Shown here in pieces: positions 17,399-35,624 of a stretch of 35,624 bases of DNA (positions within the stretch are counted from its first letter, which is position 1; each line of letters opens with the position of its first letter). Below the pieces are notes generated by a model. The model was not told the DNA's origin. It saw only the letters and a program-made list of their open reading frames with translations, and did not search any database. A program made the translations under genes and the position numbers. This stretch comes from a virus (lineage: Duplodnaviria; Heunggongvirae; Uroviricota; Caudoviricetes). The stretch is taken from IMG/VR virus record IMGVR_UViG_2778261544_000009, one strand, 5' to 3'.

Positions 17399-17427
17399 CC
17401 CGTCATCCGTAATCTGTTGTAACCCGC

Positions 17428-17475: not shown

Positions 17476-17479
17476 AGTC

Positions 17480-18770: not shown

Positions 18771-19378
18771 CAGAACAACGCCCTGAACTGCGCACACCGG
18801 GGAGCACCGTTGCGGCCGCAGAGCGCATTGTGGCCTGGCTGAAAACAGCACTTCAGGGGAAAACCCCTGACCGGGCCGACGTGGTGGAGCGTCACATCGG
18901 CCAGTTCAACAGCCCGGAAGAAGTGAAGCGCTATCTGTCCGGTCGTACCGGCTGTATCCGAATAGCTGCCCTGCGTGTCCGGGATATCAACCCGCGCGGC
19001 GGACTGTCCGGTCTGGTCACCTGGGTGGCTTACATCATGGCGACGGATTCGTGGGGGTATTCCCGCGACGTGCGCTGCGAAGTGCTGGCCGGGAAGGTGA
19101 TCAAACGCCTGTTGTCGTCGGATGCCACAGCGGGCATGGGGGCTGAACGCATGGCTGCTGATGTGCGGGCAGACAACATTTACTCCGCCAGCCTCGACGG
19201 GCTGGGCGTCACCATGTGGGCGGTGACGTGGGAGCAGGAATTTCAGCTGGATGAAGAGATTGATCTCGCCGCGCTCCCGGACTTCCTGCGCCTCGGGGCA
19301 ACGCTGCGTAGCGGTGAACACACTGAAATTAACGACGTGATCCATGTACGGGGTGACGATGGAACAGAAACTGATTAA
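18767..19378 (+). CDS. Hypothetical structural protein
   Basis: 203-aa ORF between the head and tail sheath genes. Confidence 0.5.
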   Translation: MTEQRPELRTPGSTVAAAERIVAWLKTALQGKTPDRADVVERHIGQFNSPEEVKRYLSGRTGCIRIAALRVRDINPRGGLSGLVTWVAYIMATDSWGYSRDVRCEVLAGKVIKRLLSSDATAGMGAERMAADVRADNIYSASLDGLGVTMWAVTWEQEFQLDEEIDLAALPDFLRLGATLRSGEHTEINDVIHVRGDDGTETD

Positions 19379-19544
19379 GCCAGCGCGGGAAAGCGTTCGT
19401 GTCCGTAAACCGGATGGCGCGCATTTATCCCCGGAAGGGGAACGTCTCGACGTCTGCGCTTACTGGCTGCGCCGTGAAGCCGAGGGAGATGTGGAAATAA
19501 CCACACTTCCGAAAAATAACAACAAAACCAGAGGGAAAAAATAA
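19359..19544 (+). CDS. Small hypothetical protein
   Basis: Short ORF ending at the tail sheath start; start uncertain (19344 or 19359). Confidence 0.35.
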   Translation: MEQKLIKPARESVRVRKPDGAHLSPEGERLDVCAYWLRREAEGDVEITTLPKNNNKTRGKK

Positions 19545-21019
19545 TGTCGCTGGGTTCAATTCCTGATGATATCCGCGTCCCGCTTGTCTGGATCGATATC
19601 GACAATTCACAGGCGCTGGATGGTGCATCCGCGCAAAGCCGAAAAATTCTGGTCATGGGCCATGCGGTATCGTCCGGCAGCGCAGACGCCCTGTCACTGA
19701 CCCGCATCACCAGTGACAGCCAGGCAGACCAGCTTTATGGCAAAGGGTCGATGCTGGCTGAAATGCTCAAAATGCTGCGCCGTGCCAACACGTACACGGA
19801 AACCTGGGCAATGCCGGTTGCCGCGCCAGAAGGCGCTGCCGCAAAAGCCACGCTGACCGTGCTGGGTACAGCGACTGAAGCCGGAACGGTGGCGCTGCTG
19901 ATTAACGGTGTTTCCGTTCAGGTGAGCGTGAGCGCCGGGGACACGAAGGAAAACATTGCAAAAGCCATTGCTGATGCGGTGACGAAAAAGCCTGCCACGC
20001 AGGTGGCCGCTGCGGTGAAGGATGATGCCACGGATACCGTGGAGCTGACCGTGAACTGGCACGGCGTCACCGGCAACGGTGCCGACGTTCGCCTGAACTA
20101 CTACACCGGAGAAGCCTTCCCGGCAGGTGTAAAGGTGACAGCCACCGCGTTTACCGGCGGCACCGGGACACCGGAAATGGCGGATGCCGTTGCGGCCATC
20201 GGCCCGGAGTGGTTTACCGATATCATCGCCCCGTTCACCGACACGCAAAGCCTGAACACCCTGCGTGATGAACTGCTGAACCGCTGGGGGCCGCTCAAAA
20301 TGATGGAGGCGCAGCTGTGGACGGCGTTTCGTGGCACGCACGGCGAGACAGGCACGTTTGGTGAAACCCGCAATGACTGGCTGATTAGCTGTATTGGCAC
20401 CAACCTGTCACCGCACCCGGCGTGGATGTGGGCCGCGTCATACGGCGCAACGGCAGCGTATCACCTTGCCATTGACCCGGCGCGTCCGCTTCAGACGCTG
20501 GTCCTGACCGGCATTCTGCCGCCTGCGCGTAATGTTCGCTGGGATATGCCGGAACGTAACCTGCTGCTGCATGACGGCATTGCCACGCACATGGTGGACG
20601 CCGGGGATAACGTCTGCATAGAGCGTGAAATCACCATGTACCGGGTTAACCAGTACGGTGATGCGGATGTGTCGTACCTTGATGTGCAGTCACCCGCCAC
20701 GCTGGGCCGTATCCGTTACATCATCAAAAACCGTTTCACGAACCGTTATCCGCGCCACAAGCTGGCGGATGATGACGTGCTGGACTCACTGGATGCCGGT
20801 CAGCCGGTGATGACGCCGAAGCTGTGCACCGCAGAGCTGCTGGATATCTGCCAGACCGAACTTATCCCGGCAGGCCTTGTGGAGAACTTCAGCGATTACA
20901 AGGACACGCTTCAGGTGACACGCGACAGCAGCGATAAAAACCGCCTGAACTTTATCTGCCACCCGAATCTGGTGAACCAGCTGCGTGTGCTGGCAGGCCT
21001 GATTCAGTTCAAACTTTAA
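19544..21019 (+). CDS. Tail sheath protein (Mu L-like)
   Basis: 491 aa immediately upstream of the tube gene; GAGGGA RBS. Confidence 0.8.
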   Translation: MSLGSIPDDIRVPLVWIDIDNSQALDGASAQSRKILVMGHAVSSGSADALSLTRITSDSQADQLYGKGSMLAEMLKMLRRANTYTETWAMPVAAPEGAAAKATLTVLGTATEAGTVALLINGVSVQVSVSAGDTKENIAKAIADAVTKKPATQVAAAVKDDATDTVELTVNWHGVTGNGADVRLNYYTGEAFPAGVKVTATAFTGGTGTPEMADAVAAIGPEWFTDIIAPFTDTQSLNTLRDELLNRWGPLKMMEAQLWTAFRGTHGETGTFGETRNDWLISCIGTNLSPHPAWMWAASYGATAAYHLAIDPARPLQTLVLTGILPPARNVRWDMPERNLLLHDGIATHMVDAGDNVCIEREITMYRVNQYGDADVSYLDVQSPATLGRIRYIIKNRFTNRYPRHKLADDDVLDSLDAGQPVMTPKLCTAELLDICQTELIPAGLVENFSDYKDTLQVTRDSSDKNRLNFICHPNLVNQLRVLAGLIQFKL

Positions 21020-21028
21020 GGGGGCCGC

Positions 21029-21385
21029 ATGGCAAAAATTCTTGGCATGGCGACCATTCGCGTGAATGGCCGCGAAATTAAAACCGAGGGGAAATCCACG
21101 CTGAACCCGGGCGGCTTCAGCCGCACCCAGCATATGGGCGGCGGCAAGGTCTGGGGTATCTCCAGCAAGATGGCCTCGCCGTCCATCAAGGTGACCATTG
21201 CGGCGGCTGCGGATATGGACGTGATTGAAATCAGCAGCTGGGAAGACGTCACGGTGATGTTCTACGGCGACAACGGCCTGAACTACATGATGACAGGTTC
21301 AGCCACGGATAACCCGGCGGAGCTGGACGAGGATTCCGGCACCATCAGTGCCAACTTTATCGGTGAAAAATGCGTGAAGGTGTGA
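21029..21385 (+). CDS. Tail tube protein (Mu M-like)
   Basis: 118 aa directly after the sheath gene. Confidence 0.7.
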   Translation: MAKILGMATIRVNGREIKTEGKSTLNPGGFSRTQHMGGGKVWGISSKMASPSIKVTIAAAADMDVIEISSWEDVTVMFYGDNGLNYMMTGSATDNPAELDEDSGTISANFIGEKCVKV

Positions 21386-21386
21386 C

Positions 21387-21782
21387 ATGGCTGAAATGGA
21401 ATTTGAACTGAAACACGGGCTTCTGACCGGCAAAGGCACGGCAGATGAAACCCTGCATAAAACCGTGAAGCTGCGCGAGCTGACCGCCAGTGATGTGATT
21501 GATGCGCAACTGGCCGCAGAACGCGTCGTCATGGGCGAGAACGGAAAGGCGGTGGCCTACTGTTCTGAAGTGCTGATGGGGCTGGAGATGATGCGCCGTC
21601 AGGTTGCGGCCATCGGCAACATTCCCGGCCCACTGGACATGAAACAGCTGCGAATGCTCCACCCGGCAGACCTTGAGCTTATCAGCACGAAAGCCGCCGC
21701 GCTGGATGAGATGCTTGAGGAGGTGGCAACGCGGGGGCGAACTGATGCCGCTGGCGGCGGCACTGATGAACCTGCTGGTTAA
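21387..21782 (+). CDS. Tail assembly chaperone (G-like), probably with a frameshifted extension to 21882
   Basis: Located between tube and tape measure. An overlapping ORF in the +1 frame (21673-21882) ends inside the start of the tape measure gene. Confidence 0.65.
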   Translation: MAEMEFELKHGLLTGKGTADETLHKTVKLRELTASDVIDAQLAAERVVMGENGKAVAYCSEVLMGLEMMRRQVAAIGNIPGPLDMKQLRMLHPADLELISTKAAALDEMLEEVATRGRTDAAGGGTDEPAG

Positions 21783-21868
21783 CCTTTCTCAGCGATTCAG
21801 TATTCAGTACCTGGAACAGCTGCCCCTGCGGCAGCTGTTCCGCCTGATAAAGCAACTGGAGAAACAAC

Positions 21869-23716
21869 ATGGCAACAGGTAACCGTCTCAGCACGGAAAT
21901 CATGATCAACCTTGCCGGGAACCTGACCGCCAAAGCCCGGCAGTACGGCGCAAATATGTCGCAGTTCGCCCGGAACCATCAGAAGGCCATGCGCCTTGTC
22001 AAAGCCACAACGGAGGCCGCAGGACGCGGCCTTGATACGCTGGGTAACCGCTATACGGCAATGATAGCCGGGCTTGGCAGTAGCCTTACCATCAAACAGG
22101 TTGCCGATTTTGATGCGCAGATGCGCCGGATGGGTACGGATGCCCAGTTAACCACTGAACAGGTAAAGACGCTTCACGACAAAATCAGGGATGTATCGAA
22201 CCAGAAAGATATTCGTATTGATGCTTCTGCGCTTGGTCAGGGGGCCAGCGAACTTCTGGGGAAAACCGGTGATTATCAGTATGTGGTGGACAACCTCCGC
22301 AACATGGGGTTGATGATGCAGGCGTTCGGTGTTGACGGACAGGTTGCAGCCGGGCTGATGGCCCAGTTCTGGGAAAAAAACGTCCGGGGCGCTGATGCGG
22401 TCAGTAACATGATGGACAGGCTGTATTCGCAGTTCGCAGTGGGGTCTGTAAGCGTTGCCGATGTTGCCCGCGCTGCCCCGAAACTGTTTTCCATCATTCA
22501 GGATCAGGGACCGGAAGCCATTGCCCAGATGGGGGCATTTGCTCAGGTGTTCACCAAAAACAAAGGTAGCATTGATGAGACGGTAACCAGTATTCAGGCC
22601 ATGTATGCCTCCCTGTCGGACAAAAAGAACATCGAGTTTCTGAAAAAAAACGGCGTTGATGTTTTTGTCAAAGGCACAAAAGACATCAAAAAGCCCTATG
22701 AACTGATGATGGAAATCCTTAAACGGGCCAAATACGACCCGCTGAAACTTCAGGATGTGTTTGATCTGACCGGAATGCAGGGGATTAAGGCGCTGCTTAA
22801 CCCTGAAAACCGACAACTGATGGAACAAATGATTTACGGCACGATTGATCTGGGTTCCACGCAAAAGGCCGCACAGACCAATGCCGAAGGCTTTAATGCT
22901 GCAATGCAATCACTGAATAACGAATGGCAACGTTTTGCTGAAGGACAACTGGCAAAGCCCGTTCAGGACCTGGCGGATGCGCTCAACAGCGTGGACCAGA
23001 ACACTGTCCAGAACTGGTTGCAGGTCGGTAAATATATGGCGATTGCGCTGGGTGGCATTATCGCCATCAGAAAGACGTATCAGTTCGGTAAAACCATCCA
23101 CGACATCATGAATCCCAAAGGGAAAGGCAAAGGGATACCCGGTGGCATTACGGATGTTTTCGGCTCCGGTGTGATGCCGGTTTATGTGGTTAATATGGGC
23201 AGTGGCGGGATGAATGGTAATACCGGCGGTCTGCCGGATGCGCCGGATTCATCGCGCAATCCCCGCAATCCTCGGGGTCCGGGTAACCGTGGAGGAAAGG
23301 CAGGTAAAGGCGCTGGCATCATTGCCGGTGCTCTGGAATTTTACGATTTTCTGACCACGCAATACGCCCTGCCGGGTGAGGTTCACAGTCTCACTAAATC
23401 CGTTGCCGGTGATGCCAGCGCCAGCCCGTGGGAGCGCGAGTTCGCACAACAAAGCCAGGACAACCAGAAAGCACTGGAATCCGTCTGGCGTAAGGTAACA
23501 GACTGGTTCAATTCGCTTGGTGATAAGAACATTGCCGACCCGCGACCGTGGGCAGGTATGCAACCCACACAGAATTATCCTTTCCTTCCGCAGCAGTTGC
23601 AGGGGGAAATCCGTGTGGTGGTGGAAGGTGACGCCCGCGTGAAAAGTGTCAGAGTGGATCAACCCGGCGTCAGACTCAGTGCGCAGGCTGGCGTCACCAG
23701 CGTGGAGCAAGGGTAA
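21869..23716 (+). CDS. Tail tape measure protein
   Basis: 615 aa, A/Q-rich and predicted helical, with a Gly-rich C-terminus; downstream of the chaperone pair. Confidence 0.8.
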   Translation: MATGNRLSTEIMINLAGNLTAKARQYGANMSQFARNHQKAMRLVKATTEAAGRGLDTLGNRYTAMIAGLGSSLTIKQVADFDAQMRRMGTDAQLTTEQVKTLHDKIRDVSNQKDIRIDASALGQGASELLGKTGDYQYVVDNLRNMGLMMQAFGVDGQVAAGLMAQFWEKNVRGADAVSNMMDRLYSQFAVGSVSVADVARAAPKLFSIIQDQGPEAIAQMGAFAQVFTKNKGSIDETVTSIQAMYASLSDKKNIEFLKKNGVDVFVKGTKDIKKPYELMMEILKRAKYDPLKLQDVFDLTGMQGIKALLNPENRQLMEQMIYGTIDLGSTQKAAQTNAEGFNAAMQSLNNEWQRFAEGQLAKPVQDLADALNSVDQNTVQNWLQVGKYMAIALGGIIAIRKTYQFGKTIHDIMNPKGKGKGIPGGITDVFGSGVMPVYVVNMGSGGMNGNTGGLPDAPDSSRNPRNPRGPGNRGGKAGKGAGIIAGALEFYDFLTTQYALPGEVHSLTKSVAGDASASPWEREFAQQSQDNQKALESVWRKVTDWFNSLGDKNIADPRPWAGMQPTQNYPFLPQQLQGEIRVVVEGDARVKSVRVDQPGVRLSAQAGVTSVEQG

Positions 23717-24990
23717 TGACAACGAGCAAAGGCAAATGGGACGGGCTGCGCGATGCCTCGTTTCGCGGCGTCCCCTTCTTTCTGGTGGATACGGAAGGCA
23801 CCGGTGGCCGTCGTGCCATTCCCCGTGCGTATCCCCGGCGCGAAACCGCCTGGACGGATGATAACGGGGCCGTTCCGGGGCAACAGCAGATTAACGCAAA
23901 GCTGCTGGGTAAAAACTTCCAGGATGATTTAAACGCCCTTTTAGACGCGCTCAATATCCCCGGCCCCGGCGAGCTTATCCACCCGTGGTTCGGGATACAG
24001 ACCGTACAGGTTGGCAAGGTCACCCATCGCCTCAGCACGGAGGAAGACGGCATTGCGTATGTCACTTTTGAAGTGTTTGAGGCAGGCGAGCGCCTGTTCC
24101 CGTCTGCGGCGGATAACACGCAGCAGGAAGTGCTGACGGGCATTGATGCGGTGAAAGCCGCCATTGAAGATGGCGACTGGTTCGGCGCACTCGACGGGCT
24201 GGGTGAGATGGCCGACAGCTTTCTGGCCGATATGGAAAACCTTGTGGCTAACCTGCCCACGCTACCGGCAGCACTGAATCAGTGGATGGACAGGCTGAAC
24301 CATTTTAAGGAGATGGCCGGAACCATCATTGCCACACCGGGGCGTCTGGTCAGTGAGCTGTCCTCGTTCATCGACGGCGTGGTTGATCTGGTGACGGAAC
24401 CACCCGAAGCACTGGCGGTTTACACGACATTACGCAACCAGTGGGCCGGAGAACGTGCCCGACAGGTTGCCACCGGCGCACTGCCGGAAGATATCACCGT
24501 GAAGCCCGGCAGCGTGGCAGACGGTGAAATAGGCTTTGCTATCGGGCTGTCACCGGATTATCAGCCGGTATCTGACAGCCTGCAGAAGAACATTGACGAC
24601 TTCCGCCAGGTGGTTGTGCTGGAAACCCTGCTGGGACAGGCAAATGCCGTGGCCTCGATGACGTTCGATACCAGTGATGCGGCATTATCTGCCGGTGACA
24701 CGCTGGCGGCTGAACTGCATGAGCAGGCGGTGGCGGCGGTGGAAAATAACCAGCGGGCATTGTGGCGAACGCTGCGCGATTTACGGCAGGCCGTGATTAC
24801 GGATGCCCGCGAGCGTGCCGCCCGTCTGCCGGAAACCCGGCAGGTGACGCTGACCACAACCACATCTGCCGCATTGCTGGCATGGCGCGAGCATGGTGAC
24901 ACCAGCCGACGGGATGAAATCGTGCAGCGTAACCGCCTGCGCCATCCGTCATTCATTCTGCCGACGCAACCTGTGGAGATTACCGACTGA
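23716..24990 (+). CDS. DNA circularization protein N-like tail protein
   Basis: 424-aa ORF following the tape measure, as in Mu; assigned by position. Confidence 0.6.
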   Translation: MTTSKGKWDGLRDASFRGVPFFLVDTEGTGGRRAIPRAYPRRETAWTDDNGAVPGQQQINAKLLGKNFQDDLNALLDALNIPGPGELIHPWFGIQTVQVGKVTHRLSTEEDGIAYVTFEVFEAGERLFPSAADNTQQEVLTGIDAVKAAIEDGDWFGALDGLGEMADSFLADMENLVANLPTLPAALNQWMDRLNHFKEMAGTIIATPGRLVSELSSFIDGVVDLVTEPPEALAVYTTLRNQWAGERARQVATGALPEDITVKPGSVADGEIGFAIGLSPDYQPVSDSLQKNIDDFRQVVVLETLLGQANAVASMTFDTSDAALSAGDTLAAELHEQAVAAVENNQRALWRTLRDLRQAVITDARERAARLPETRQVTLTTTTSAALLAWREHGDTSRRDEIVQRNRLRHPSFILPTQPVEITD

Positions 24991-26060
24991 TGGAATCCGT
25001 GATTCTTACCGTTGACGGCAAACTGTGGGAAGGCTGGACGGAAATGTCCATCAGCCGTTCCCTGAAGGCGATTGCCGGTGAGTTTGATCTCAGTGTGACA
25101 ACCCGCTGGTCAGCGGCGGCACCGCGCGTGATTCGTGAGGGGCAACCCTGCACGGTCAGGCTGGGCGCGGATACCGTGCTGACGGGGTATATTGATGATT
25201 TTATCCCCAGCTATGACGCAGATAACGTGGAGATCCGCGTCATGGGGCGCGACAAAACCGGTGACCTGGTGGACTGCTCTGTGGTGCATTCATCCGGGAA
25301 ATGGAAAGGCGTGCGGCTTGAACAGGTGGCGGCTGATGTCTGCCGCCCGTTCGGGATAACCGTCATCACGGAAACCCCGACCGGGGAGGCGTTTGCGTCC
25401 GTTGTTCTGGAACAGGGTGAAACGGGCTTTGAACTGCTCGACCGGCTGGCAAAACAGCGCGGCGTTCTGCTGACGTCTGACGGCGCAGGTAACCTGATTA
25501 TCACCCGCGCCTCTTCCGTTCGCGCGGGTGTGTCACTGGTGCTGGGGAAAAATATCCTCGCTGCCCGTGGGCGCTTCAGCTGGCGGGAGCGTAACAGCCA
25601 GTACATCATCAAGGGCACCACCAGTGCCGGTGGCAAACTGTGGGACAGCCAACCTGCCTCGATGGTGGGTGGTCGCCAGTACATCACCGAAGACCCGGAA
25701 ATTAACCGTTACCGCCCGCGCATTCTGGTCAATGAAGACAGCCTGACCGTGGGCGGGGCCAGCATTCGCGGGGAATGGTACAAAGCCCGGATGCTGGGGG
25801 AATCCCGCACGACGGAAATCACGGTGGCAGGCTGGCGCGAACAGGGCGACAGCGGCCCGCTGTGGCAGACCAACCGCCTTGTCGATATCGACGACAGCAT
25901 TCAGAACCTGAAAACCACCTGGCTGATATCCGGGGTGACCTGGACGGATGGCGCACAGGGGCGGATGACGGTTCTGGCGCTGGTTCCACCTGAATCACTG
26001 GACATGCCGGAAATGAAAGCGAAGACGAAGAAAACAAAGGCGGTGGCCACATGGGATTAA
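24990..26060 (+). CDS. Baseplate/tail protein (Mu P-like)
   Basis: 356 aa in the baseplate block. Confidence 0.6.
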   Translation: MESVILTVDGKLWEGWTEMSISRSLKAIAGEFDLSVTTRWSAAAPRVIREGQPCTVRLGADTVLTGYIDDFIPSYDADNVEIRVMGRDKTGDLVDCSVVHSSGKWKGVRLEQVAADVCRPFGITVITETPTGEAFASVVLEQGETGFELLDRLAKQRGVLLTSDGAGNLIITRASSVRAGVSLVLGKNILAARGRFSWRERNSQYIIKGTTSAGGKLWDSQPASMVGGRQYITEDPEINRYRPRILVNEDSLTVGGASIRGEWYKARMLGESRTTEITVAGWREQGDSGPLWQTNRLVDIDDSIQNLKTTWLISGVTWTDGAQGRMTVLALVPPESLDMPEMKAKTKKTKAVATWD

Positions 26061-26587
26061 ACGCCATTGCCCGCCGTCTGCGGCTGATGGTTGACCGTGC
26101 CATTGTCCGCATGGTGTCTGACAGTCTGGAGCGGCAGAACCTGCAAATCCAGACGCTGGCAGATGCCACTGATGACGATGTGGAACGCTTCCAGAATTAC
26201 GGGTTTACTTCCGTTCCGCCGGAAGGTTCAGAAGCCATCGTGCTGGCCGTGGGCGGACGGCGTGACGGGCTGGTTGCCATCGCGGTGGAGGATAAGCGAT
26301 GTCGCCCTAAAGGCTTGTCCACCGGCGACGTCCGGCTGTATCACCAGGACGGCAAATCACATATCACGTTAAGGAAAGGCGGAATTATTGAAATCACAGG
26401 AGAACAATTAAACTTTTCAGGGAAAACGGTAAATCTCACCGCCGACGAATTGCTGAATATTATCGGTAAACAAATGAAATTCGTCGGTCCCTGTGAATTT
26501 ACTGAAGATGTCAGAATCAACGGTAAATCATTCATCGAACACATTCATAAGGACGGCGACAATGAGAATACATCACCGCCCGTATGA
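26051..26587 (+). CDS. Baseplate assembly/spike protein (V-like)
   Basis: 178 aa in the baseplate block. Confidence 0.55.
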   Translation: MGLNAIARRLRLMVDRAIVRMVSDSLERQNLQIQTLADATDDDVERFQNYGFTSVPPEGSEAIVLAVGGRRDGLVAIAVEDKRCRPKGLSTGDVRLYHQDGKSHITLRKGGIIEITGEQLNFSGKTVNLTADELLNIIGKQMKFVGPCEFTEDVRINGKSFIEHIHKDGDNENTSPPV

Positions 26588-27036
26588 CGACAGGAATCCG
26601 CTGGAATAACATGCTCTCACGGGGTGACATCACCGTCACCCATAACGGCCTCTCACTGGATGAGGGGCTGGTCACTCAGGTTCTTATCTGCCTTTTCACC
26701 GATGCCCGTGCTGATGACGATGATGTCATTCCTGACGGCTCTGGCGACCCGCGCGGCTGGCCGGGCGACACGTACAGCGATTTTTCGTGGGGTTCCCGCC
26801 TGTGGCTGCTTGAGCGTGAAAAGCTGACGGAAGATGTCCGCCTGCGTGTGGAAGATTACGCGCGGCTGTCCATGCAACCGCTGCTGCGGGCCGGTTACGC
26901 CCGTAACGCCACCGTCACGGCCAGAATCATCGTCCCTGACCGTATTGCCTTTCAGGTGGTGTTAACCCGCCCGGACAAAACCACGCTCACAATTGAAATC
27001 ACCCGCCGATGGGAGGCCACCATTAATGCCGTATGA
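26584..27036 (+). CDS. Baseplate wedge protein (W/gp25-like)
   Basis: 150 aa in the baseplate block. Confidence 0.55.
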   Translation: MTTGIRWNNMLSRGDITVTHNGLSLDEGLVTQVLICLFTDARADDDDVIPDGSGDPRGWPGDTYSDFSWGSRLWLLEREKLTEDVRLRVEDYARLSMQPLLRAGYARNATVTARIIVPDRIAFQVVLTRPDKTTLTIEITRRWEATINAV

Positions 27037-28102
27037 AATCCCCACGCTGGGCAAACTGATTGCCGACGGCGAAAAAGATATTGCGTATGAACTCGGCCTG
27101 CAAAAGCTGCCGCCTGTCAGTGTTGAGCAGGCGCTGAACGTGTCATTCAGCAGTCAGGTCCGGGATTTATACGACCATCAGAGCTGGATTAAGGACCAGA
27201 TAATCCCGTCCACCACGTCTGATGATGAAACCATTATCAAAACAGCAACGTATGAAGGGGTTATCCGCAAGCAGGCCACCTTTGCCAGCGGACCGGTGAC
27301 CTTCACCAGTCAGTCCCCCATTCCGGCAGAAACCCGGATGCAGTCCGACACGAATCAGGTGTATCAGGTGCTCACATCCGGCGAGGTACAGGACGGCGAG
27401 GTCACTGTCATCGTGCAGGCTGAAGAAGCCGGTGTGGCGGGCAATCTTGCTGCCGGTGCCGTGCTCACTCTGTTATCCCCGCTACCCGGAACGGGCAGCA
27501 CCGGCGCGGTGACTGAAAGTGGCATCACCGGTGGCGCAGATATCGAATCCATCGCAGAGCTGCTGGACCGTCTGCTGTATGTGCGCCGCAATCCCCCGGT
27601 GGGCGGTGCACTGCATGATTACGTCATCTGGGCGCGTGAAGTGCCGGGTGTCAGCCGCGCGTGGGCATGGGATGCGTGGCACGGCCCCGGCACGGTCGGG
27701 CTGGCATGGCTTTATGATGACCGTGAAGACATTATCCCCACACGGGACGACCTGAAGACAATGGAGCAGTATCTGTTCTGCCACAAACACCCGGCCACCG
27801 GCGTGATGGTGGGTAAACCGGGCGGCATCGAGGTCTGGCCGGTGCAGGTCAGGCTGAAGAAGCTCGACCTGTCCATCCGTCTGACACCGGACAGCCAGGC
27901 GAACAGGAACGCCGTCCGGGCCAACCTGACCGCATTACAGAAAACGCTGGCCCCCGGTCAGATGCTGCCGGTGTCCTCGCTGCGCACGGCCATCGGTATG
28001 ACGTCCGGCATTACGGATTACTTTCTCAACATCGGGGAAGACACCACCAGTGATGTGGATGAGCTTATCACCATCGGGGAGGTGACATGGCTCACAGCGT
28101 GA
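27026..28102 (+). CDS. Baseplate J-like protein
   Basis: About 358 aa; start taken at the ATG at 27026 (the track ORF begins at a TTG at 26993). Confidence 0.6.
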   Translation: MPYEIPTLGKLIADGEKDIAYELGLQKLPPVSVEQALNVSFSSQVRDLYDHQSWIKDQIIPSTTSDDETIIKTATYEGVIRKQATFASGPVTFTSQSPIPAETRMQSDTNQVYQVLTSGEVQDGEVTVIVQAEEAGVAGNLAAGAVLTLLSPLPGTGSTGAVTESGITGGADIESIAELLDRLLYVRRNPPVGGALHDYVIWAREVPGVSRAWAWDAWHGPGTVGLAWLYDDREDIIPTRDDLKTMEQYLFCHKHPATGVMVGKPGGIEVWPVQVRLKKLDLSIRLTPDSQANRNAVRANLTALQKTLAPGQMLPVSSLRTAIGMTSGITDYFLNIGEDTTSDVDELITIGEVTWLTA

Positions 28103-28671
28103 CGGAATGGCTGACCGCACTGCAACAGGTCATGCCACGGGGTAAGGCATGGCCGCGTGATAACGACACGGATTTAAACCGCTTTTTAAGGGCACTTGCA
28201 GCGCGTTTAACCCGCGTTGAATACGACGCCTCGCGTCTGCATGTGGAGATGCGACCGGAAACCACGCTCCAGCTGCTGCCGGAGTGGGAGCAATATCTGG
28301 CGCTGCCGGAATGCGGAATTGCCGCCACCACAACAGAAGCACGCCGCCGGGCCGTGGTGGAGAAATACCGCCGCAAAGGCGGGCTGGCAACCTGGCAGAT
28401 TGAAGCCGCTGCGGCGGCGCTGGGCTTCACCATCAAGGTGACGGCTGTTCTGCCGCACCACTGCCTGCGCGACTGTATGTATCCGCTGCATCCGGCCCGG
28501 TATCGCTGGCTGCTGAAAGTGGAAGTCCCGGACAAAGATGCCGGACGGTTTACCTGTATTGATGACGTCATGACGCCATTAATCAGCGAACGGACCCGCG
28601 AGCTGGAATGCCTGCTGAAGCATTACCGGCTGGCGGGGACGGGATATGAATATTATTACACCGGAGAATAA
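28087..28671 (+). CDS. Tail/baseplate protein (Mu gp48-like)
   Basis: 194 aa immediately upstream of the first fiber gene. Confidence 0.55.
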   Translation: MAHSVTEWLTALQQVMPRGKAWPRDNDTDLNRFLRALAARLTRVEYDASRLHVEMRPETTLQLLPEWEQYLALPECGIAATTTEARRRAVVEKYRRKGGLATWQIEAAAAALGFTIKVTAVLPHHCLRDCMYPLHPARYRWLLKVEVPDKDAGRFTCIDDVMTPLISERTRELECLLKHYRLAGTGYEYYYTGE

Positions 28672-28674
28672 TTT

Positions 28675-29670
28675 ATGTTTCATGTGGATAATCCGACGGG
28701 TGTACCGGTAATGCCACCTGTCGCGGCTGAATACAGTAAAACAACGCTTTATTTCACTGAAGGCGGGAACGGTATTCCGCCCACTTATCCGGGGCCGGAC
28801 TGGTTTAATATCATGCAGTCCGAAATGCTGGAAATTCTCCGGCAGGCAAATATCAAACCGGACAAAAACACGACCAACCAGATTATGACGGCGCTGAAAA
28901 AGCTGTTTATCACGAACAGTGGTTCAGCCGGAGCTATTGCCGGATTAACCGGTCAGAATAATACATTCCCGTATTTTACCGGCGAAGACACAATGGCATT
29001 AACGCCGCTCAGTGCTTTTGTGCGCAGTATTCTCGGGAAAACCACAGCCAGCGAATTTATTAAAGCAATTGGCCTGTCACCGGACACCCTTTTATCAAAA
29101 GGACGGGTGACAGCATTAAGCGGCACAGCACAGGGACATGCAGGGCTGCAGATGTATGAAGCGTACAACAACGGCTACCCCACCACTTATGGCAATGTTC
29201 TGCACCTGAAAGGCGCGACAGCATCAGGCGAAGGTGAACTGCTGATTGGCTGGAGTGGTACGAGTGGAGCGCATGCCCCTGTTTATATCCGTTCAAGACG
29301 TGATTCTGCAGATGCCAGCTGGTCCGAATGGGCACAGGTGTATACATCAAAAGACAGCTTCAACGCAGCAACCGCCACCAAACTACAAACCGCCCGCAGG
29401 ATTAACAATGTGCTGTTTGATGGCACCAGCGATATCACCATCAGCAGCACCGATTCCGGCGCTGTGCGTGATTTCAGATACACCAGCGAAGTGTTTCACA
29501 ATCCTGGTGGTAACGAAATTTCCTGGGTATTCCGTGCGCCTTCAGGTTGTATTTTGTCAGGTATTAACGTTCAGGATACTGGCAGAAGTTCTGCGGATAA
29601 CATCGGCGGCGTGTATTACAAACAAACTCAGATTTATATCAATGGTGGATGGCGCACGGTATCCGGCTAA
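28675..29670 (+). CDS. Tail fiber protein (first fiber)
   Basis: 331 aa; N-terminus MFHVDNPTGVPVMPP...GIPPTYPGPDWFN resembles conserved tail-fiber N-termini; followed by a fiber assembly gene. Confidence 0.7.
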   Translation: MFHVDNPTGVPVMPPVAAEYSKTTLYFTEGGNGIPPTYPGPDWFNIMQSEMLEILRQANIKPDKNTTNQIMTALKKLFITNSGSAGAIAGLTGQNNTFPYFTGEDTMALTPLSAFVRSILGKTTASEFIKAIGLSPDTLLSKGRVTALSGTAQGHAGLQMYEAYNNGYPTTYGNVLHLKGATASGEGELLIGWSGTSGAHAPVYIRSRRDSADASWSEWAQVYTSKDSFNAATATKLQTARRINNVLFDGTSDITISSTDSGAVRDFRYTSEVFHNPGGNEISWVFRAPSGCILSGINVQDTGRSSADNIGGVYYKQTQIYINGGWRTVSG

Positions 29671-29684
29671 TTAAGGAGAAAATA

Positions 29685-30215
29685 ATGGAACTCAGAAACG
29701 TCACGCGTTATTACCCGGAAGAGATGCCTTATGGTGAAAACATTCAGTATTTCCGCAGTGAAGACGGACAGGATTTTTATGAATCACTGGATAAATTCAC
29801 GAAGAAATACAAATTGTGTATTCACCCTGAAAGCGGCGTGATTTATTCAATGGCGGAAGACGTGTCCCGTCTTTATCCGGCTGGCTTCACCATTGTGGAA
29901 GTGGATGAACTGCCGGAAGGTTTTGGCATTGAAGCCAGCTGGTATTACAAAGACGGCGAAGTGCTGCCGGTTCCTGTTGATTACTCGCGACTGGCAGAAA
30001 AAAAACGCCAGAGCCTGCTGAATGAAGCGAAGGACATCACCTCCGACTGGAAAACCGAGCTGGAGCTGGGCACCATCAGCGACGATGATAAAGCCCGTCT
30101 TACGCAGTGGATGGCATATATCAAAGCGGTAAAGGCACTGGATTTAAGCACCGTTACTGACGAAGCCTCCTTTTACTCCATCAACTGGCCGGAGCGTCCC
30201 GATGCCGCAGCTTAA
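29685..30215 (+). CDS. Tail fiber assembly protein (Tfa/U-like)
   Basis: AAGGAG RBS then ATG at 29685; ends ...INWPERPDAAA, typical of Tfa chaperones. Confidence 0.7.
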   Translation: MELRNVTRYYPEEMPYGENIQYFRSEDGQDFYESLDKFTKKYKLCIHPESGVIYSMAEDVSRLYPAGFTIVEVDELPEGFGIEASWYYKDGEVLPVPVDYSRLAEKKRQSLLNEAKDITSDWKTELELGTISDDDKARLTQWMAYIKAVKALDLSTVTDEASFYSINWPERPDAAA

Positions 30216-33200
30216 AGGTGTGATTAAAACGCCCACGGGAGAACCGCTGGGCGGCGCAACAATTACACTGACCTCCCTGCACAACCGTGCAGGGATTCTG
30301 AAAAGTGTTTTCAGCCATGTCACCACACAGAGCGGGGAGTACGACTTCCCCGTTCTGCCGGGTGTGTACAGCGTTCGCCTGACACAAAGCACACAGCGCC
30401 TTTCAGAAATCGGTGTCATCCGCGTTTATGAGGATTCAGCGGACGGTTCGCTGAATGATTTTCTGGGCGCAACCGATATTGACCTGCGCCCGGAAGCCCT
30501 GAAGAAATTCGAGGAACTGGCGCAACAGGCGCAGCAAAGCGCAGAAAAAGCAGGAGAGCACGCCACCGCTGCTGAACAGGCCCGCCAGGATACAGAAACG
30601 CTCGCCTGGGAAATACAGCAGGATGCAGAAGAAATTGCGGGTAATGTGCAGAAAGCTGAAGAGCTGGCCTCTGAAACAAACCAGAATGCCGCCCGCGCAG
30701 AGCAGGCTGTCAAGGATGCTGACGCGATAGTCCAGAAAGCGGTCGATAAACTTGCTGATGCTGCAACGCTGACCGGCGAGGCAAAAGCCAGCGCCGAAGC
30801 GGCAGCAAAAAGCGAACAGAACTCGAAACAGCACAGGGACGAGGCGCAACGGATAGTTGATGACCTGAAGGGAAGCAATGCCTCCACGACGGAAAAAGGC
30901 CTGGTGCAACTCTGTAGTGATACAGACAACGACAGCGAAGAACTGGCAGCCACACCAAAGGCTGTCAAAACCGTCATGGACGAGACGAAAACAAAAGCTC
31001 CACTGGACAGCCCGGTGTTCACCGGCACGCCAACCACACCAACCCCACCGGATGATGCAGTCGGTCTGGAAACCGCGAACGCGGCATTTGTTCGCAAACT
31101 GCTCGCCGCACTGGTTGACTCGTCACCGGAAGCCCTGGACACACTGAATGAGCTGGCAGCGGCGCTGGGCAATGACCCGGAGTTCGCGACAACAATCATG
31201 AACGCGCTGGCGGGTAAACAACCACTCAGTGACGTGTTAACCGCAATCAGTAATCTGGAAGAACGGGCAGATAATCTTCTGTGCTTTAATCAGGACGGGA
31301 ATGCTTCACTGTCTCCGCTGTCAGAAAAAGCCCGGTCACTGCTGGCACAGGCCACAGTGGAAGCCATGCGCAATGAGCTTGAGCTGAAAAGCGCGGCGGT
31401 AAAGGACATTCAGACAGACCTTTACGACAGCTCGGAAGGCCGTGTTGCGCTGCCTGGTGCATTTGGTTACGGAATGACGGACGCCGGAGCGCGTTCAATT
31501 ATTGCCAGCGATATGGCGACTGTAGCCAGAACTGCGCACAACCTGCACCCGGGACGGTATTACACCTTTTCCACACAAACGGAAGAGACGACCGGAATAA
31601 CAGAAATTATCTGGCTGGATAATGGCTGGGGCGACAAAACAAGCCAGACAGCAACAAAGCTGGTTCTGTTTTTTGGAAAAGACGGACGGATTCTTATGAC
31701 CGTTCGTGGCGATAATATCTCCGCCCCGGTCACCTGGACGAATCTGACGCTACAACTGGGCAATGCAGCACAGAAGGATGCACAGGAGAATATTTACGAC
31801 CGCACCGAAGGCCGTCTGGCGATTCCCGGCATGTTTGGATTCGGGAAAGTATTTTCCAGCGGCGACAGGACCGAATTTAAAACAGAGGCCGATTTTCTCC
31901 GCTGGGTAAAAACAGCAAAACCCGGTCGTTATGTCGTTTATGGCGCAGATAAAGTGATTCCCGGAGTCCTGTTCAGCGGCACCGTTGAAATTATCTGGCC
32001 GGAACCTCAAACCAACTCCAATCCGGTATATGTGGCCAAAATCATTATTTTTTACGGTATTAACGGCCATATTTATTACAATCGCTACTGGACTACCGGA
32101 GATGGTTATCTGGTTGGCTGGGAAAACCTGAAAGTCAACGAGGCTTCACTCCGGGCACTGATTGAAACCCGCGCGCCACTGAACAGCCCGGCACTGACCG
32201 GAACGCCGTCCACGCCAACACCACCAGATGATGCAGCAGGTAATGAAATAGCCAATGCGGAGTTTGTCCGCAAACTGCTTGCCGCGCTGGTTGGCTCATC
32301 ACCGGAAGCCCTGGACACGCTGAACGAACTGGCGGCGGCACTGGGCAATGACCCGAACTTTGCGACAACAGTCACTAATGCACTGGCAGGTAAACAGCCG
32401 CTTAATGACGTGTTAACGGCTGTCAGCCAGATAACACCGGAAGAAAACACACTGCCTTATTTCAGTGAAGAGGGCCGGATTTTACTGGCGCAGCTGTCAG
32501 AAAAAGCCCGCGCATTACTGGCACTGGACACACCTGAGGCCATGCGCACGGAGCTTGAACTGAAAGCGGCTGCGACGATGGAGCCCCAGAGCGATATCCG
32601 CGACCGCACACCAGGCAGACTGGCACTGTCCGGCATGTACGGATTCGGTCAGGCATTTGCCAGCACCGACGCCCTGACATTTACCGGACAGGCTGATTTT
32701 GCTGAATGGCTGAAAGAGGCCACCCCGGGGCGTTATGCGGTCAGTATTGCGGACTCTTCCACGCTGCTGGCTGGCACCACGAAATTTAACGGCATCATTG
32801 ATGTGATGTGGTCGCCCTTTGATAACGATGAATCGGACACAACGCGTAAATTCAAAACGTTGCTGTGTTTTAACCAGTATTACGAAGGCGAACACAGCAT
32901 TCATCGCCTGACTTACCGCTGGAGTGGAAACAACTGGAATGCAACAGTAAGCCCTGTCATTTACGACGGCGATTCGCTGGCGTTCTTACTCTCCCGGACA
33001 GCAGGCTCAGGCTCATATTACAAATATCCGGCAGTTGGTGTGCCGGTTATGGCGGCATATCAGGGGGAAAGTTTTGGTGCTGATGTGTCTCTGGGACTCG
33101 GTGATATTGTGCCGGGTTCCCGTCTTGGCCCTCTGGCTATGAGTGCTTCAGTTAGCGATACAGGGACATACGTATCCACACCGCAAGTGGCAATTGGTGG

Positions 33201-33306
33201 TGCCAGTGCATACAACTTTCCCGGTCGTTATATGGCGCTTTCGGGGTCACGCAGTAATCACGATACAAAACGTGGCTATATTGGTCTTTTTGTGCGTATC
33301 GAGTAA
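30202..33306 (+). CDS. Side tail fiber protein (lambda Stf / P2 H-like), 1034 aa with internal repeats
   Basis: N-terminus GVYSVRLTQ...IRVYEDSADGSLNDFLGA matches the Stf-family N-domain; two copies of the LAATPKAVK...APLxSPxxTGTPTTPTPPDD...LVDSSPEALDTLNELAAALGNDP collar repeat; three GRLAxPGxFGFG...PGRY tip-like modules. Confidence 0.85.
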   Translation: MPQLKGVIKTPTGEPLGGATITLTSLHNRAGILKSVFSHVTTQSGEYDFPVLPGVYSVRLTQSTQRLSEIGVIRVYEDSADGSLNDFLGATDIDLRPEALKKFEELAQQAQQSAEKAGEHATAAEQARQDTETLAWEIQQDAEEIAGNVQKAEELASETNQNAARAEQAVKDADAIVQKAVDKLADAATLTGEAKASAEAAAKSEQNSKQHRDEAQRIVDDLKGSNASTTEKGLVQLCSDTDNDSEELAATPKAVKTVMDETKTKAPLDSPVFTGTPTTPTPPDDAVGLETANAAFVRKLLAALVDSSPEALDTLNELAAALGNDPEFATTIMNALAGKQPLSDVLTAISNLEERADNLLCFNQDGNASLSPLSEKARSLLAQATVEAMRNELELKSAAVKDIQTDLYDSSEGRVALPGAFGYGMTDAGARSIIASDMATVARTAHNLHPGRYYTFSTQTEETTGITEIIWLDNGWGDKTSQTATKLVLFFGKDGRILMTVRGDNISAPVTWTNLTLQLGNAAQKDAQENIYDRTEGRLAIPGMFGFGKVFSSGDRTEFKTEADFLRWVKTAKPGRYVVYGADKVIPGVLFSGTVEIIWPEPQTNSNPVYVAKIIIFYGINGHIYYNRYWTTGDGYLVGWENLKVNEASLRALIETRAPLNSPALTGTPSTPTPPDDAAGNEIANAEFVRKLLAALVGSSPEALDTLNELAAALGNDPNFATTVTNALAGKQPLNDVLTAVSQITPEENTLPYFSEEGRILLAQLSEKARALLALDTPEAMRTELELKAAATMEPQSDIRDRTPGRLALSGMYGFGQAFASTDALTFTGQADFAEWLKEATPGRYAVSIADSSTLLAGTTKFNGIIDVMWSPFDNDESDTTRKFKTLLCFNQYYEGEHSIHRLTYRWSGNNWNATVSPVIYDGDSLAFLLSRTAGSGSYYKYPAVGVPVMAAYQGESFGADVSLGLGDIVPGSRLGPLAMSASVSDTGTYVSTPQVAIGGASAYNFPGRYMALSGSRSNHDTKRGYIGLFVRIE

Positions 33307-33320
33307 CGGGGAAATAAGAC

Positions 33321-33896
33321 ATGAAAATCAGAGCGATAAAAGGCATCAGAAATGCCCATTATCTCGAAAATGGTGCGGTTGACTGCGAGGTGTTATTTGA
33401 AGGTGAAACGGAATTCGTCCCGTATACCGCCATGCAGGATGATACCGCAATGACAGGCCAGCGCATCTGGGAAGAGTTACAGAGCGGCAAATGGGGTGAA
33501 ATCGCCCCGTTTACAGTCACGCCTGAACTTATCGCAGCGGCAAAAGATGCCAAAAAGATGGAAATCGAGGCGTGGCGCACAGAACAGGAGGCGCAGCCGT
33601 TCACGTTCGAATGGAACGGCCGCCCTTGGAATGCTGGCCCCGACTCACTGGCCCGTCTTTATCCGGTAGTAATGGCGGCGAAATCCGATACGGCAAGAAC
33701 CGCCCTTGCGTGGGGTGACGCCAATAATCAACAGGTGAAACTGTCAATGTCGGAACTGGAAGAACTGGCGGTAGCAATGGCGCAGGCGCAGCTCGATCGC
33801 AATGACGGGATTTATCAGCGCCAGCGTGAAATGAAGGAGCAGCTTTCCCGGCTGTCCATACTGGACGAGGTGAGAGCGTTAACTGTCGGTGATTAA
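33321..33896 (+). CDS. Putative tail fiber assembly/chaperone protein (second)
   Basis: 191-aa ORF immediately downstream of the large fiber gene. Confidence 0.55.
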   Translation: MKIRAIKGIRNAHYLENGAVDCEVLFEGETEFVPYTAMQDDTAMTGQRIWEELQSGKWGEIAPFTVTPELIAAAKDAKKMEIEAWRTEQEAQPFTFEWNGRPWNAGPDSLARLYPVVMAAKSDTARTALAWGDANNQQVKLSMSELEELAVAMAQAQLDRNDGIYQRQREMKEQLSRLSILDEVRALTVGD

Positions 33897-34019
33897 ATAA
33901 TCAGTTTGTATAGTTTATGACGATCGATAACATCATATCGATCGTCGGTTTGCATCGGTTGTGATTAAATACCCCCAGCCCTCCGGGCGGTCATGTCTGG
34001 TTATTACACAGGGGGAATC
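33897..34019. promoter_or_regulatory. mom-operon regulatory region with GATC-containing inverted repeat
   Basis: Perfect 11-bp inverted repeat GACGATCGATA-N6-TATCGATCGTC at 33919-33946 carrying two GATC sites; CCCCC...GGGGG elements nearer the com start. Confidence 0.6.
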
Positions 34020-34205
34020 ATGGACTCTGTTCGCTGTAAAAACTGCAATAAATTACTGTTTAAAGGAGGTTTTAAGCATATAGAAATTAAATGCCCTCGC
34101 TGTAAACGTTACATTGTCATATCGAATGCCAAAGAGCATCCCACGGAGCTGTATTGTGGGAAAAGAGAAGAAATCACGCATTCTGACAAAACCCTGCGTT
34201 ATTGA
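34020..34205 (+). CDS. com: Com zinc-finger translational activator of mom
   Basis: 61 aa, CKNCNKLLF...CPRCKR zinc finger ending ...[10 protein letters not shown]; AGGGGGA RBS. An alternative ATG lies at 33993. Confidence 0.85.
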
Positions 34206-34851
34206 GTATGAAGGCCGGATTGTCGGCTATGGTTCAAAGGAGCTGCGCGTTGAAACCATATCCTGCTGGCTGGCCCGCACAATCATTCAGACAAAACACT
34301 ATTCCCGCCGTTTTGTGAATAACTCCTACCTGCATTTGGGCGTATTCAGCGGACGTGATCTGGTTGGTGTTCTTCAGTGGGGATATGCCCTTAACCCCAG
34401 CTCAGGGCGTCGTGTTGTGCTGGAAACGGATAACCGGGGCTATATGGAACTGAACCGCATGTGGCTACACGACGACATGCCCCGCAATTCTGAATCACGG
34501 GCCATCAGCTACGCGCTGAAAACCATCAGGTTACTGTACCCGTCAGTGGAGTGGGTTCAGTCCTTTGCAGACGAACGCTGCGGACGTGCTGGCATGGTAT
34601 ATCAGGCGTCGAATTTTGATTTTATAGGCAGCCACGAAAGCACGTTCTACGAACTGGACGGCGAGTGGTATCACGAGATAACGATGAACGCGATTAAGCG
34701 CGGAGGACAACGAGGCGAGTATTTACGGGCTAATAAGGAGCGGGCCGTGGTACACAAATTTAATCAGTATCGCTACATCAGATTCCTGAACAAGCGCGCA
34801 AAAAAGCGCCTAAACACTAAGCTATTCAGGGTTCAGCCATACCCGAAGTGA
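34126..34851 (+). CDS. mom: Mom DNA-modification protein
   Basis: Overlaps the 3' end of com, as in Mu. Start uncertain: TTG at 34114, ATG at 34126, or GTG at 34156. Confidence 0.8.
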
Positions 34852-34871
34852 TCCCACTTAATGAATAAAAA

Positions 34872-34896
34872 AGCAGCGGTAAATGCCGCTGTTTTA
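34872..34896 (+). terminator. Terminator-like hairpin after mom
   Basis: Stem CAGCGG / loop TAAATG / CCGCTG followed by TTTTAT. Confidence 0.5.
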
Positions 34897-34976
34897 TCTT
34901 GAATAACTTCCATATGCGCGCTTCTGGCTTATCTTGAAAGAATTCCATATCTATCTTGAATAATTTTGCGCGCTTT
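34891..34976. repeat. Right-end (attR) terminal repeats, putative transposase binding sites
   Basis: Three direct copies of ATCTTGAA(T/A)A at 34895, 34930 and 34953; GCGCGCTT at 34915 and 34969. The phage sequence ends ...TTTTGCGCGCTTT(A) against host DNA. Confidence 0.6.
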
Positions 34977-35624
34977 AGTTTCTCTGGCGCGCTCCGTAAA
35001 CCCCGGGAACAGAGGCAGCTTGATTTCCCGACACATCTGAATGGCAAAGTGTTCTGCCATCAGCATAATGTCGCTTTCGCGCTCGCGCAGGGGCGGCAGT
35101 TGCACTACATCGAAAGCCAGCCGGTCGAGCAGGTCAGCGCGAAAATTACCTTCATTGACCATCGCCGGGAGATCGGCATTCGTCGCGCATACCAACCGCA
35201 CATTCACCTGCAATGGCTGGCTGCCGCCAACGCGCTCCAGTTCACCGTACTCAATCACACGCAATAATTTCTCCTGCACCATCATCGGTGCCGTAGCGAG
35301 TTCATCAAGAAATAGCGTACCGCCGTCGGCACGTTCAAATCTCCCTGGATGACGTTTTTGCGCACCGGTAAACGCGCCCGCTTCGTGACCAAACAGTTCG
35401 GAATCCAGCAGATTTTCATTTAACGCCGCGCAGTTAAGGGAAATAAACGGCCCCTGCCAACGGGAGGAGAGATAATGCAGACGGCTGGCAATCAGCTCTT
35501 TACCTGTGCCGCGCTCGCCGATGATGAGCACCGGTTTGTCCAGCGGTGCGAGATGCGAAACCTGTTCCAGCACTTCGAGAAAGCTGTTCGCCTCACCGAG
35601 TAAATTATCTTTGTATTCTGCCAT
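34977..35624 (-). pseudogene. pspF: Host pspF (sigma-54 activator of the phage-shock operon), 3' end truncated by the prophage
   Basis: The N-terminal ~216 aa (MAEYKDNLLGEANSFLEVLEQ...GERGTGKE...GFTERARET) match my recollection of E. coli PspF; after ERARET the frame runs 15 codons into phage DNA to a stop at 34929. Confidence 0.85.

Follow-up and report, generated by a model that had tools for sequence, protein, structure and literature searches.

The com-mom locus close to the right end of a viral DNA stretch of 35,624 nucleotides (IMG/VR record IMGVR_UViG_2778261544_000009, here called the window, meaning the whole stretch) is a DNA-modification, anti-restriction operon of the phage Mu kind, lying at the right end of a Mu-like Escherichia coli prophage. 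As regards its genes and what they do, this is standard Mu biology, on the face of it nothing new, and the locus is best described as a known system whose regulation departs modestly from that of Mu. Two features that define the Mu mom promoter (Pmom) are not found in the window, namely three GATC sites, and a site for the late activator C together with a C gene. Expression of com-mom is probably controlled at three levels: by an operator for OxyR and Dam methylation, by an activator-dependent promoter, and by translation of mom that is opened by the Com protein.

The added value is modest and comparative. At least three natural layouts of the mom GATC sites occur, which are 1+2+3 (Mu), 1+2 (the lineage of the window) and 2+3 (the O157 Sp18 type), and all three share one framework, a pair of OxyR-type half-sites 16 base pairs (bp) apart. 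These can serve as natural mutants for asking how many Dam targets, and which, an OxyR/Dam switch needs. They also lend themselves to studying the timing of a toxic anti-restriction gene in a Mu-like phage with a two-tier late cascade (Mor only) as against a three-tier one (Mor, then C).

Genes and translational control

The coding and translational features of the locus, together with the hairpin that follows it, are:

34011-34015, + strand: Shine-Dalgarno (SD) sequence GGGGG of com, 5 nucleotides (nt) before the ATG at 34020, conserved in the lineage
34020-34205, + strand: com, 61 amino acids, zinc-ribbon RNA-binding translational activator of mom (Pfam PF10122)
34126-34139, + strand: predicted Com target hairpin AUGC-CAAAGA-GCAU, with CC-AAA-GAG at 34129-34136, fitting the CC-N2-3-GAG hexaloop rule
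34139-34161, + strand: predicted translation-inhibitory stem-loop UCCCACGG-AGCUGUA-UUGUGGGA, sequestering the mom SD GGAG (34145-34148) and the GUG (34156-34158)
34156-34851, + strand: mom, 231 amino acids from the GUG (PF25680); the in-frame AUG at 34126 is the alternative and gives 241
34874-34899, + strand: hairpin CAGCGG-TAAATG-CCGCTG followed by a T-tract, likely a bidirectional terminator of com-mom

Both genes had been named in a preliminary description of this DNA, as overlapping in the manner of Mu, and Pfam matches and alignment to Mu bear this out; overlapping com and mom genes at the right end of a transposable phage are likewise found in D108 and SfMu. Com matches the Pfam family Zn_ribbon_Com with 30.5 bits (gathering cut-off 22.9) and is 74% identical to Mu Com, with the zinc-binding residues C6, C9, C25 and C28 all kept. 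The open frame of mom runs from 34114 to 34851 and overlaps com. Its product matches PF25680 with 253 bits (cut-off 27.1; E=2.6e-75) over profile positions 1-202 of 202, aligns to the solved structure of Mu Mom (PDB 8BV8) with E=7.6e-155, and is 97% identical to Mu Mom without a gap, the helix-turn-helix-like insertion (~175-209) included. At the nucleotide level, blastn identity to Mu, SfMu and D108 is 88-89% from position 34030 on. Related prophages keep the hairpin after mom, and at the equivalent place Mu likewise has one.

Mom is a Gly-tRNA(Gly)-dependent N6-adenine aminoacyltransferase of the GNAT fold, which moves glycine from Gly-tRNA(Gly) onto the N6 of adenine in double-stranded DNA (PMC13219725). 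An on-base rearrangement then yields N6-carbamoylmethyl-adenine, which blocks restriction (PMC13219725). The anti-restriction role given to Mom in the preliminary description agrees with this activity as a DNA-modification enzyme, and the catalytic residues were checked: every residue reported to be important is kept, comprising W48, H58, Y59, R111, S124, D149, R151, Y159 and W181 in the 241-residue numbering of PMC13219725 (alignment position + 10). Database labels for these proteins vary. RefSeq names Com a 'Com family DNA-binding transcriptional regulator' (loci L004-L012), in contrast to the experimental literature, where it is an RNA-binding translational activator, and across the same genomes Mom carries three product names and two start codons.

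The motif recognised by Com, CC-N2-3-GAG, sits in a hexaloop at the tip of a short hairpin, which adjoins a translation-inhibitory structure with the GUG start of mom inside its stem (PMC6483171). The region of the window that holds the corresponding hairpin and stem has a fold identical to that in Mu. Across lineages the hairpin stem, the CC and the GAG are invariant, and the inhibitory stem is kept in all, including the Sp18 type. The free N3 positions of the loop vary between lineages (AAA, UGC, CGG, GUU, UCA, ACA, UUC and others). An invariant stem, CC and GAG around a variable N3 is the pattern expected of a hairpin bound by a sequence-specific protein, and the predicted Com-dependent translational control is strongly supported by this conservation. 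A search of Rfam gave no family over the Com hairpin or the inhibitory stem, and two sub-threshold chance matches, both in the phage end.

The start codon of mom had been described as impossible to fix from sequence, a view that comparison overturns. All 9 lineages examined have the GUG within the stem (34156). Ten codons further upstream, the in-frame AUG is lacking in two of them (L015 and the O157 Sp18 type) and replaced by a GUG in two others. Because the stem GUG is universal across the lineages and the upstream AUG is not, the comparison favours GUG 34156, and with it a Mom of 231 residues. This would agree with the literature model, in which mom starts at the GUG within the stem (PMC6483171). 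Both the 241-residue Mom and the Delta10 form of 231 residues are reported to be active (PMC13219725).

A predicted OxyR-type operator with two GATC sites

Upstream of com lies the region that the preliminary description had linked to the Dam/OxyR control of Mu mom. Its elements are:

33910-33955, + strand: OxyR-type operator, two half-sites with a 16-bp spacer
33910-33924: left half-site ATAGTTTATGACGAT, 8/10 to the consensus ATAGnTnnnAnCTAT
33941-33955: right half-site ATCGTCGGTTTGCAT, 5/10 to the same consensus
33919-33946: perfect inverted repeat GACGATCGATA-ACATCA-TATCGATCGTC, 11+11 bp with a 6-bp spacer, holding the presumed Dam targets
33922-33925 and 33940-33943: GATC1 and GATC2, 18 bp apart start to start, homologous to Mu mom sites 1 and 2
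33953-33956: CATC where Mu has its GATC site 3, with loss of the third Dam site; part of the invariant block TTTGCATC (33949-33956)

Dam and OxyR govern Pmom in Mu (PMC3378877, PMC2909390), and alignment supports the view that the repeat region is the homologue of part of the Mu mom Dam/OxyR operator. In the MAFFT alignment, homology with Mu begins exactly at TATAG (33909), with the same 18-bp spacing between GATC1 and GATC2. The ATAG, GATC1 and GATC2 are invariant over the lineage together with Mu, SfMu and D108. This homology was seen by MAFFT; blastn of the regulatory region against phages gives Mu similarity only from 34030. The earlier match to Mu control thus stands as far as the ATAG and the first two GATC sites are concerned, but not for the third GATC, which is lost, nor for the right half-site, which is weaker. 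In Mu the 3' end of gin reaches past GATC1, its stop codon falling between GATC1 and GATC2, whereas the operator of the window is intergenic.

Half-sites were scored with variable spacing against the OxyR consensus as cited in PMC2909390. The operator reaches 13/20 at the 16-bp spacer, a value of at least 13 being reached there by 4 of 678 background tiles of the window, and its spacer-12 register scores 14/20. With the extended two-half-site layout the scores out of 20 are 14 for Mu, 15, 15 and 13 for the distant mom loci L016, L056 and L058, 14 for the Sp18 type and 16 for agn43 of E. coli, and in each of these six operators the 16-bp arrangement (17 bp in agn43) scores top. A contiguous canonical OxyR site with a 7-bp spacer was also tried and rejected, as it gives 12/20 in the ATAG register in both the window and Mu and the extended layout fits all the operators better. 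In the 7-bp register over all three GATC sites of Mu, the score is 13 for Mu and, by hand count, about 9 for the window.

The extended layout places GATC1 at the inner end of the left half-site (…CGATc) and GATC2 and GATC3 at the two ends of the right half-site (gATCG-N7-CGATc). This explains the 13-bp spacing of the latter two, which is also the geometry of the GATC pairs in the P22 gtr operator. There, pairs 13 bp apart lie in single OxyR half-sites, and two methylated GATCs in one half-site suffice to abolish OxyR binding (PMC2909390), so a two-GATC operator can be methylation-sensitive. The gtr operator differs in its four GATCs and three half-sites, and OxyR both activates and represses there; in the window the two GATCs lie in separate half-sites. 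The agn43 (flu) operator is similar in its two extended half-sites (17-bp spacer, as against 16 in the window), its GATCs at ATCG/CGAT half-site ends, and an ATAG 12 bp before the first GATC. It differs in having three GATCs (19 + 13 bp) and half-sites that score 8 + 8, and in overlapping the promoter and the transcription start site (TSS). It also controls a host adhesin by heritable phase variation, without a translational layer of the Com type.

The perfect GATC-bearing repeat was confirmed in the sequence, with its 11-bp arms and 6-bp spacer. Perfect inverted repeats of at least 11 bp with spacers of up to 30 bp occur at four places in the window, as against ~0.3 expected from Markov-1 simulations. 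GATC is about 3-fold under-represented in the whole window (44 observed and ~135 expected from base composition), and with 44 sites 0.95 adjacent pairs within 18 bp are expected by chance, so the 18-bp GATC spacing alone is not significant. The repeat and the spacing are each weak statistically when taken alone, and their weight comes from conservation and homology. Over 21 distinct sequences of the lineage the arms are invariant or nearly so and the spacer of the repeat is variable; the sole arm change, G33919A, occurs in two sequences and is uncompensated. Judged from these comparisons, the repeat is not the recognition unit itself: it is made of the inner arms (CGAT and ATCG) of two OxyR-type half-sites plus three lineage-specific symmetric positions.

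A reading of the repeat as the site of another symmetric dimeric protein, or as an RNA or DNA hairpin acting as terminator or insulator of the upstream operon, rather than as an OxyR/Dam operator, is very improbable. Its perfection (11/11 here, 8/11 in Mu), the stable 12-bp hairpin that it forms as RNA (about -16.5 kcal/mol, z = -2.2) and the weak right OxyR half-site would suit such a reading. However, no U-tract follows the repeat (GGUUUGCAU) and compensatory changes are lacking, so it is not a canonical terminator and was rejected as an intrinsic one. Two copies of the self-palindromic CGATCG by themselves yield a 6-bp inverted repeat, and six independent operators have OxyR half-sites whose inner elements correspond to the arms.

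A direct repeat, GTGATTAAAT(A), flanks the operator at 33889-33899 and 33961-33971, at a distance of 72 bp. Its upstream copy, which shares bases with the stop codon of the tail-fibre assembly gene, is conserved less well among relatives; the pair may mark a recombination junction or be due to chance.

Promoter core, activator and rival readings

The comparison set comprised 55 loci from E. coli genomes, IMG/VR contigs and deposited phages; a scan of genome contigs gave just three loci. Class A (24 loci: Mu, D108, SfMu and relatives) combines three GATCs (18 + 13 bp) with TTAT-N6-ATAA as the C site, a T6 run and TAAGAT. In class B, which comprises 28 loci with 21 distinct sequences, the window among them, there are two GATCs at 18-bp spacing, site 3 reads CATC and the promoter core is unrelated. 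At site 3, CATC is found in 28/28 class B loci, and a GATC 13 bp after site 2 in 24/24 loci of the Mu type. Three distant Mom loci (83-87% Mom identity) have three GATCs with a 13-bp pair and a CCATAAC C-box, which suggests that the Mu layout is ancestral and that class B is derived. The O157 Sp18 type has kept sites 2 and 3 and not site 1; since class B holds 1+2 and the Sp18 type 2+3, two-GATC operators appear to have arisen in two different ways.

The Sp18 type of com-mom, found in ~230 complete E. coli genomes (for example L089, E. coli O157:H7 FRIK2455, 384-700), resembles the window in the overlap of com and mom, in CC-ACA-GAG, and in a CCCCAC/GUGGGG stem with the GUG start. It also has two half-sites (7 + 7) with a 16-bp spacer and only two GATCs. 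Its GATCs are 13 bp apart and both lie in the right half-site; its mom has ~71% nucleotide identity, and the upstream in-frame AUG is absent.

Phylogenetic footprinting of class B marks invariant blocks at 33909-29, 33936-46, 33949-56, 33960-87 and 33997-34015; besides the repeat spacer, the linkers 33957-59 and 33988-96 are variable. Two elements of the core are of interest:

33960-33987, + strand: invariant 28-bp block TGTGATTAAATACCCCCAGCCCTCCGGGC with the dyad GCCC-TCC-GGGC, at the position of the Mu C site; candidate activator-binding site
34002-34007, + strand: TATTAC, candidate weak -10 element (TATTAT in L052/L054, TAATAC in 06-00048)

The preliminary description would have been undermined by a regulatory region unlike that of Mu, and this is half the case: the operator is Mu-like, but the promoter core is not. 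The signature of C-dependent late promoters in Mu is TTAT-N6-ATAA in Pmom and a box of the CCATAACCCC type in Plys, PI and PP. Neither the Mu C site, the T6 run nor TAAGAT is found in the region upstream of mom in the window, and the unrelated invariant block stands in their stead. The sequence that aligns to the C-binding dyad of Mu (TTGTGATTAAATAC) is unlike TTAT-N6-ATAA, and AAATACCCCCAG bears only a loose resemblance to the PI box gcATAACCCCAG. A second copy of the core motif CCCCCAGCCCTCCGGGCGG or of ATAMCCCC was sought in the window as a mark of sister late promoters; no meaningful one was found, a match at 10595 being discounted because it lies inside a coding region.

Pmom of Mu requires the late activator C (PMC4461284, PMC3378877), and neither of Mor and C activates the promoters of the other (PMC4287176). 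The mor gene of the window (7284-7733) encodes a protein 62% identical to Mu Mor and 33% identical to Mu C. Pfam and PHROGs scans of 20 early and middle open reading frames gave no C orthologue, and the RefSeq annotation of the sister prophage ETEC1732 holds a single Mor-family gene and no C. In a scan sensitive to relatives down to ~54% identity, a relative of C was present in 7/7 long class A contigs and in 0/8 class B contigs of at least 33 kb; when Mu, D108 and SfMu (class A) and the window and ETEC1732 (class B) are added, the counts are 10/10 and 0/10. Among the elements examined, the type of promoter core tracks the presence or absence of C. The window further carries a Mor-binding dyad with a terminator hairpin, AAGCCGGTAAATCCGGCTT, followed by a T-run, at two places:

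7740-7758: after mor and before the endolysin and lysis genes
15461-15479: before the protease/scaffold gene

These are the only exact copies of AAGCCGGTAAATCCGGCTT in the window, none being expected by chance. Two exact Mor dyads and no C gene suggest a two-tier late cascade, with Mor only.

The three-level control that we consider probable would work as follows. When the GATCs are unmethylated, OxyR would bind the operator 33910-33955 and repress; methylation of the GATCs by Dam would prevent this binding, both steps being proposed by homology. Transcription would then start from the weak -10 TATTAC, served by the block 33960-87 and a putative activator at a Mu-like distance from the operator (TATTAC is 92 bp from the ATAG, as against 88 bp for TAAGAT in Mu). 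An activator-dependent promoter with a Mu-like layout is the most likely arrangement on these sequence grounds. Com made from the same mRNA would bind the CC-AAA-GAG hairpin (34126-39) and open the adjacent stem (34139-61), freeing the mom SD and GUG 34156, so that Mom could be translated. By analogy with Mu, Mom would glycylate the N6 of adenine in double-stranded phage DNA, and the rearranged product, N6-carbamoylmethyl-adenine, would protect against many restriction enzymes.

Several observations weigh against this scheme. At the operator, the third GATC is missing, the right half-site reaches just 5/10 (7/10 in Mu) with a weakened outer right end, and the consensus scores are modest (13-14/20), with several registers about equal. 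At the promoter, a sigma-70 consensus scan of 33700-35100 gave none upstream of com, and TATTAC as a -10 would leave an awkward com leader of ~5-7 nt. The window holds no C (tblastn with Mu C matches Mor alone) and there is no Mor box in the region upstream of mom. At the level of translation, the RNA fold z-scores of the small hairpins are not significant, and the conservation of the hairpin is confounded by the overlapping com frame, as the same nucleotides encode the C-terminus of Com. Lastly, the stretch from the late genes to com is free of + strand terminators, so that com-mom may draw on transcripts other than those of a dedicated promoter.

Transcripts from upstream could in principle be all there is. 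Com-mom would then lack an effective promoter of its own and form the tail of a Mor-dependent late operon from 15461, with the operator as a remnant or a roadblock. No convincing + strand terminator was found in 15480-34019, com lies just 123 bp past the tail-fibre assembly gene, the late blocks are headed by the two exact Mor boxes, and a consensus promoter is absent, all of which would fit. The operator and the 28-bp block are nevertheless invariant in 21 distinct sequences while the adjacent linkers vary, which argues for function and not for a remnant. The cassette and its upstream region also recur behind other genes (an IS3 element in SA53-3, a different fibre gene in JNE21) and occur with two types of phage end, suggesting a self-contained regulatory unit. 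We therefore regard read-through as the only source of com-mom mRNA as unlikely.

We give a similarly low chance to an autonomous switch resembling that of agn43, in which a -10 element TATAGT (33909-33914) overlaps the left half-site and the TSS falls at ~33921, near GATC1. Here OxyR would occlude RNA polymerase directly, Dam methylation alone would activate without any phage activator, and the repeat would be a 5' stem-loop of the mRNA. TATAGT agrees with TATAAT in 5/6 positions, A-11 and T-7 among them (the Mu sequence is TATAGA), the 5' end annotated for IsrC/flu in agn43 lies at GATC-I, 12 bp past the ATAG of the left half-site, and such a switch would account for the absent C and for the RNA hairpin of the repeat. 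Yet no -35 element accompanies TATAGT (2/6), and it is hence not called by the promoter scan; four class B loci have TATAGA, as Mu does; the distance from the operator to the -10, near that of Mu, favours the Mu-like layout with TATTAC; and the block 33960-87 would be explained only as a 5' untranslated region. More broadly, it is improbable that the C-less cassette is an autonomous Dam/OxyR epigenetic switch of the agn43 kind, whether by way of TATAGT or of a putative activator on 33960-87. If it were, mom expression could be independent of the phage late cascade; it might be phase-variable from the prophage, with host DNA modified along with that of the phage.

Within the core, CCCCC (33972-33976) can pair with the com SD GGGGG (34011-34015), and in the VL40 subgroup an A-to-T change at 34010 gives the perfectly complementary CCCCCAG/CTGGGGG. 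The fold z-score of this pairing is ~0 and there is no clean compensatory change, so that an anti-SD element is only possible.

The prophage and its relatives

The window is nearly an entire Mu-like transposable prophage. DNA-level likeness to Mu or D108 elsewhere in the prophage is confined to the early region. From the left, the gene order is as follows:

repressor
transposase proteins A and B
Gam and GemA
Mor
GH108 endolysin
Mu gp27-like packaging genes
head and tail genes
tail fibre, within 30202-33896, 1034 amino acids
DUF4376 protein (the tail-fibre assembly gene), 33321-33896
com-mom
prophage right end, 34893-34977, with TCTTGAA-type repeats, ending in GCGCGCTTTA at 34977

In contrast to Mu, neither the gin invertase nor an invertible G segment lies upstream of com-mom (none was found in the window, at 30202-33896), the leader is shorter, and the right end is not that of Mu. 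The 1034-residue tail fibre has an internal duplication of ~80 residues (…TGTP(T/S)TPTPPDDA…NALAGKQPL…). The repressor at the left edge (1-594, minus strand) is an HTH_3 or phage CI-type protein of 197 residues, whereas the ETEC1732 prophage has at the repressor position a protein annotated as MerR family; the immunity region is thus also mosaic.

From 34978 to 35624 the window holds host pspF on the minus strand, an open reading frame truncated by the insertion after ~codon 216. Thousands of E. coli genomes match this flank, and by it the host appears to be E. coli; Dam and OxyR are both present in this species. The end GCGCGCTTTA is common to three independent insertions, whose sequences part immediately beyond it. 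The prophage terminus, …TTTTGCGCGCTTTA, has a terminal TA, as against CA in Mu.

Com and mom are already annotated by RefSeq in hundreds of E. coli genomes. Among 5,426 complete E. coli genomes, mom is present in 325, and the exact regulatory region of the window in ~49; that of ETEC1732/1734 is 100% identical to it. No description of a C-less, mom-bearing lineage was found in the searchable literature, in a search that was not exhaustive.

The right end seen in the window recurs in STEC346 and VL40, at different sites of insertion. In ETEC1732, PSS15 and UMNF18 the same com-mom cassette is joined to an end of the Mu type, …GCGCCGCTTCA, so the cassette is common to two types of end and transposase. 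The A protein has 695 residues in the window, and 663 in the other of these types.

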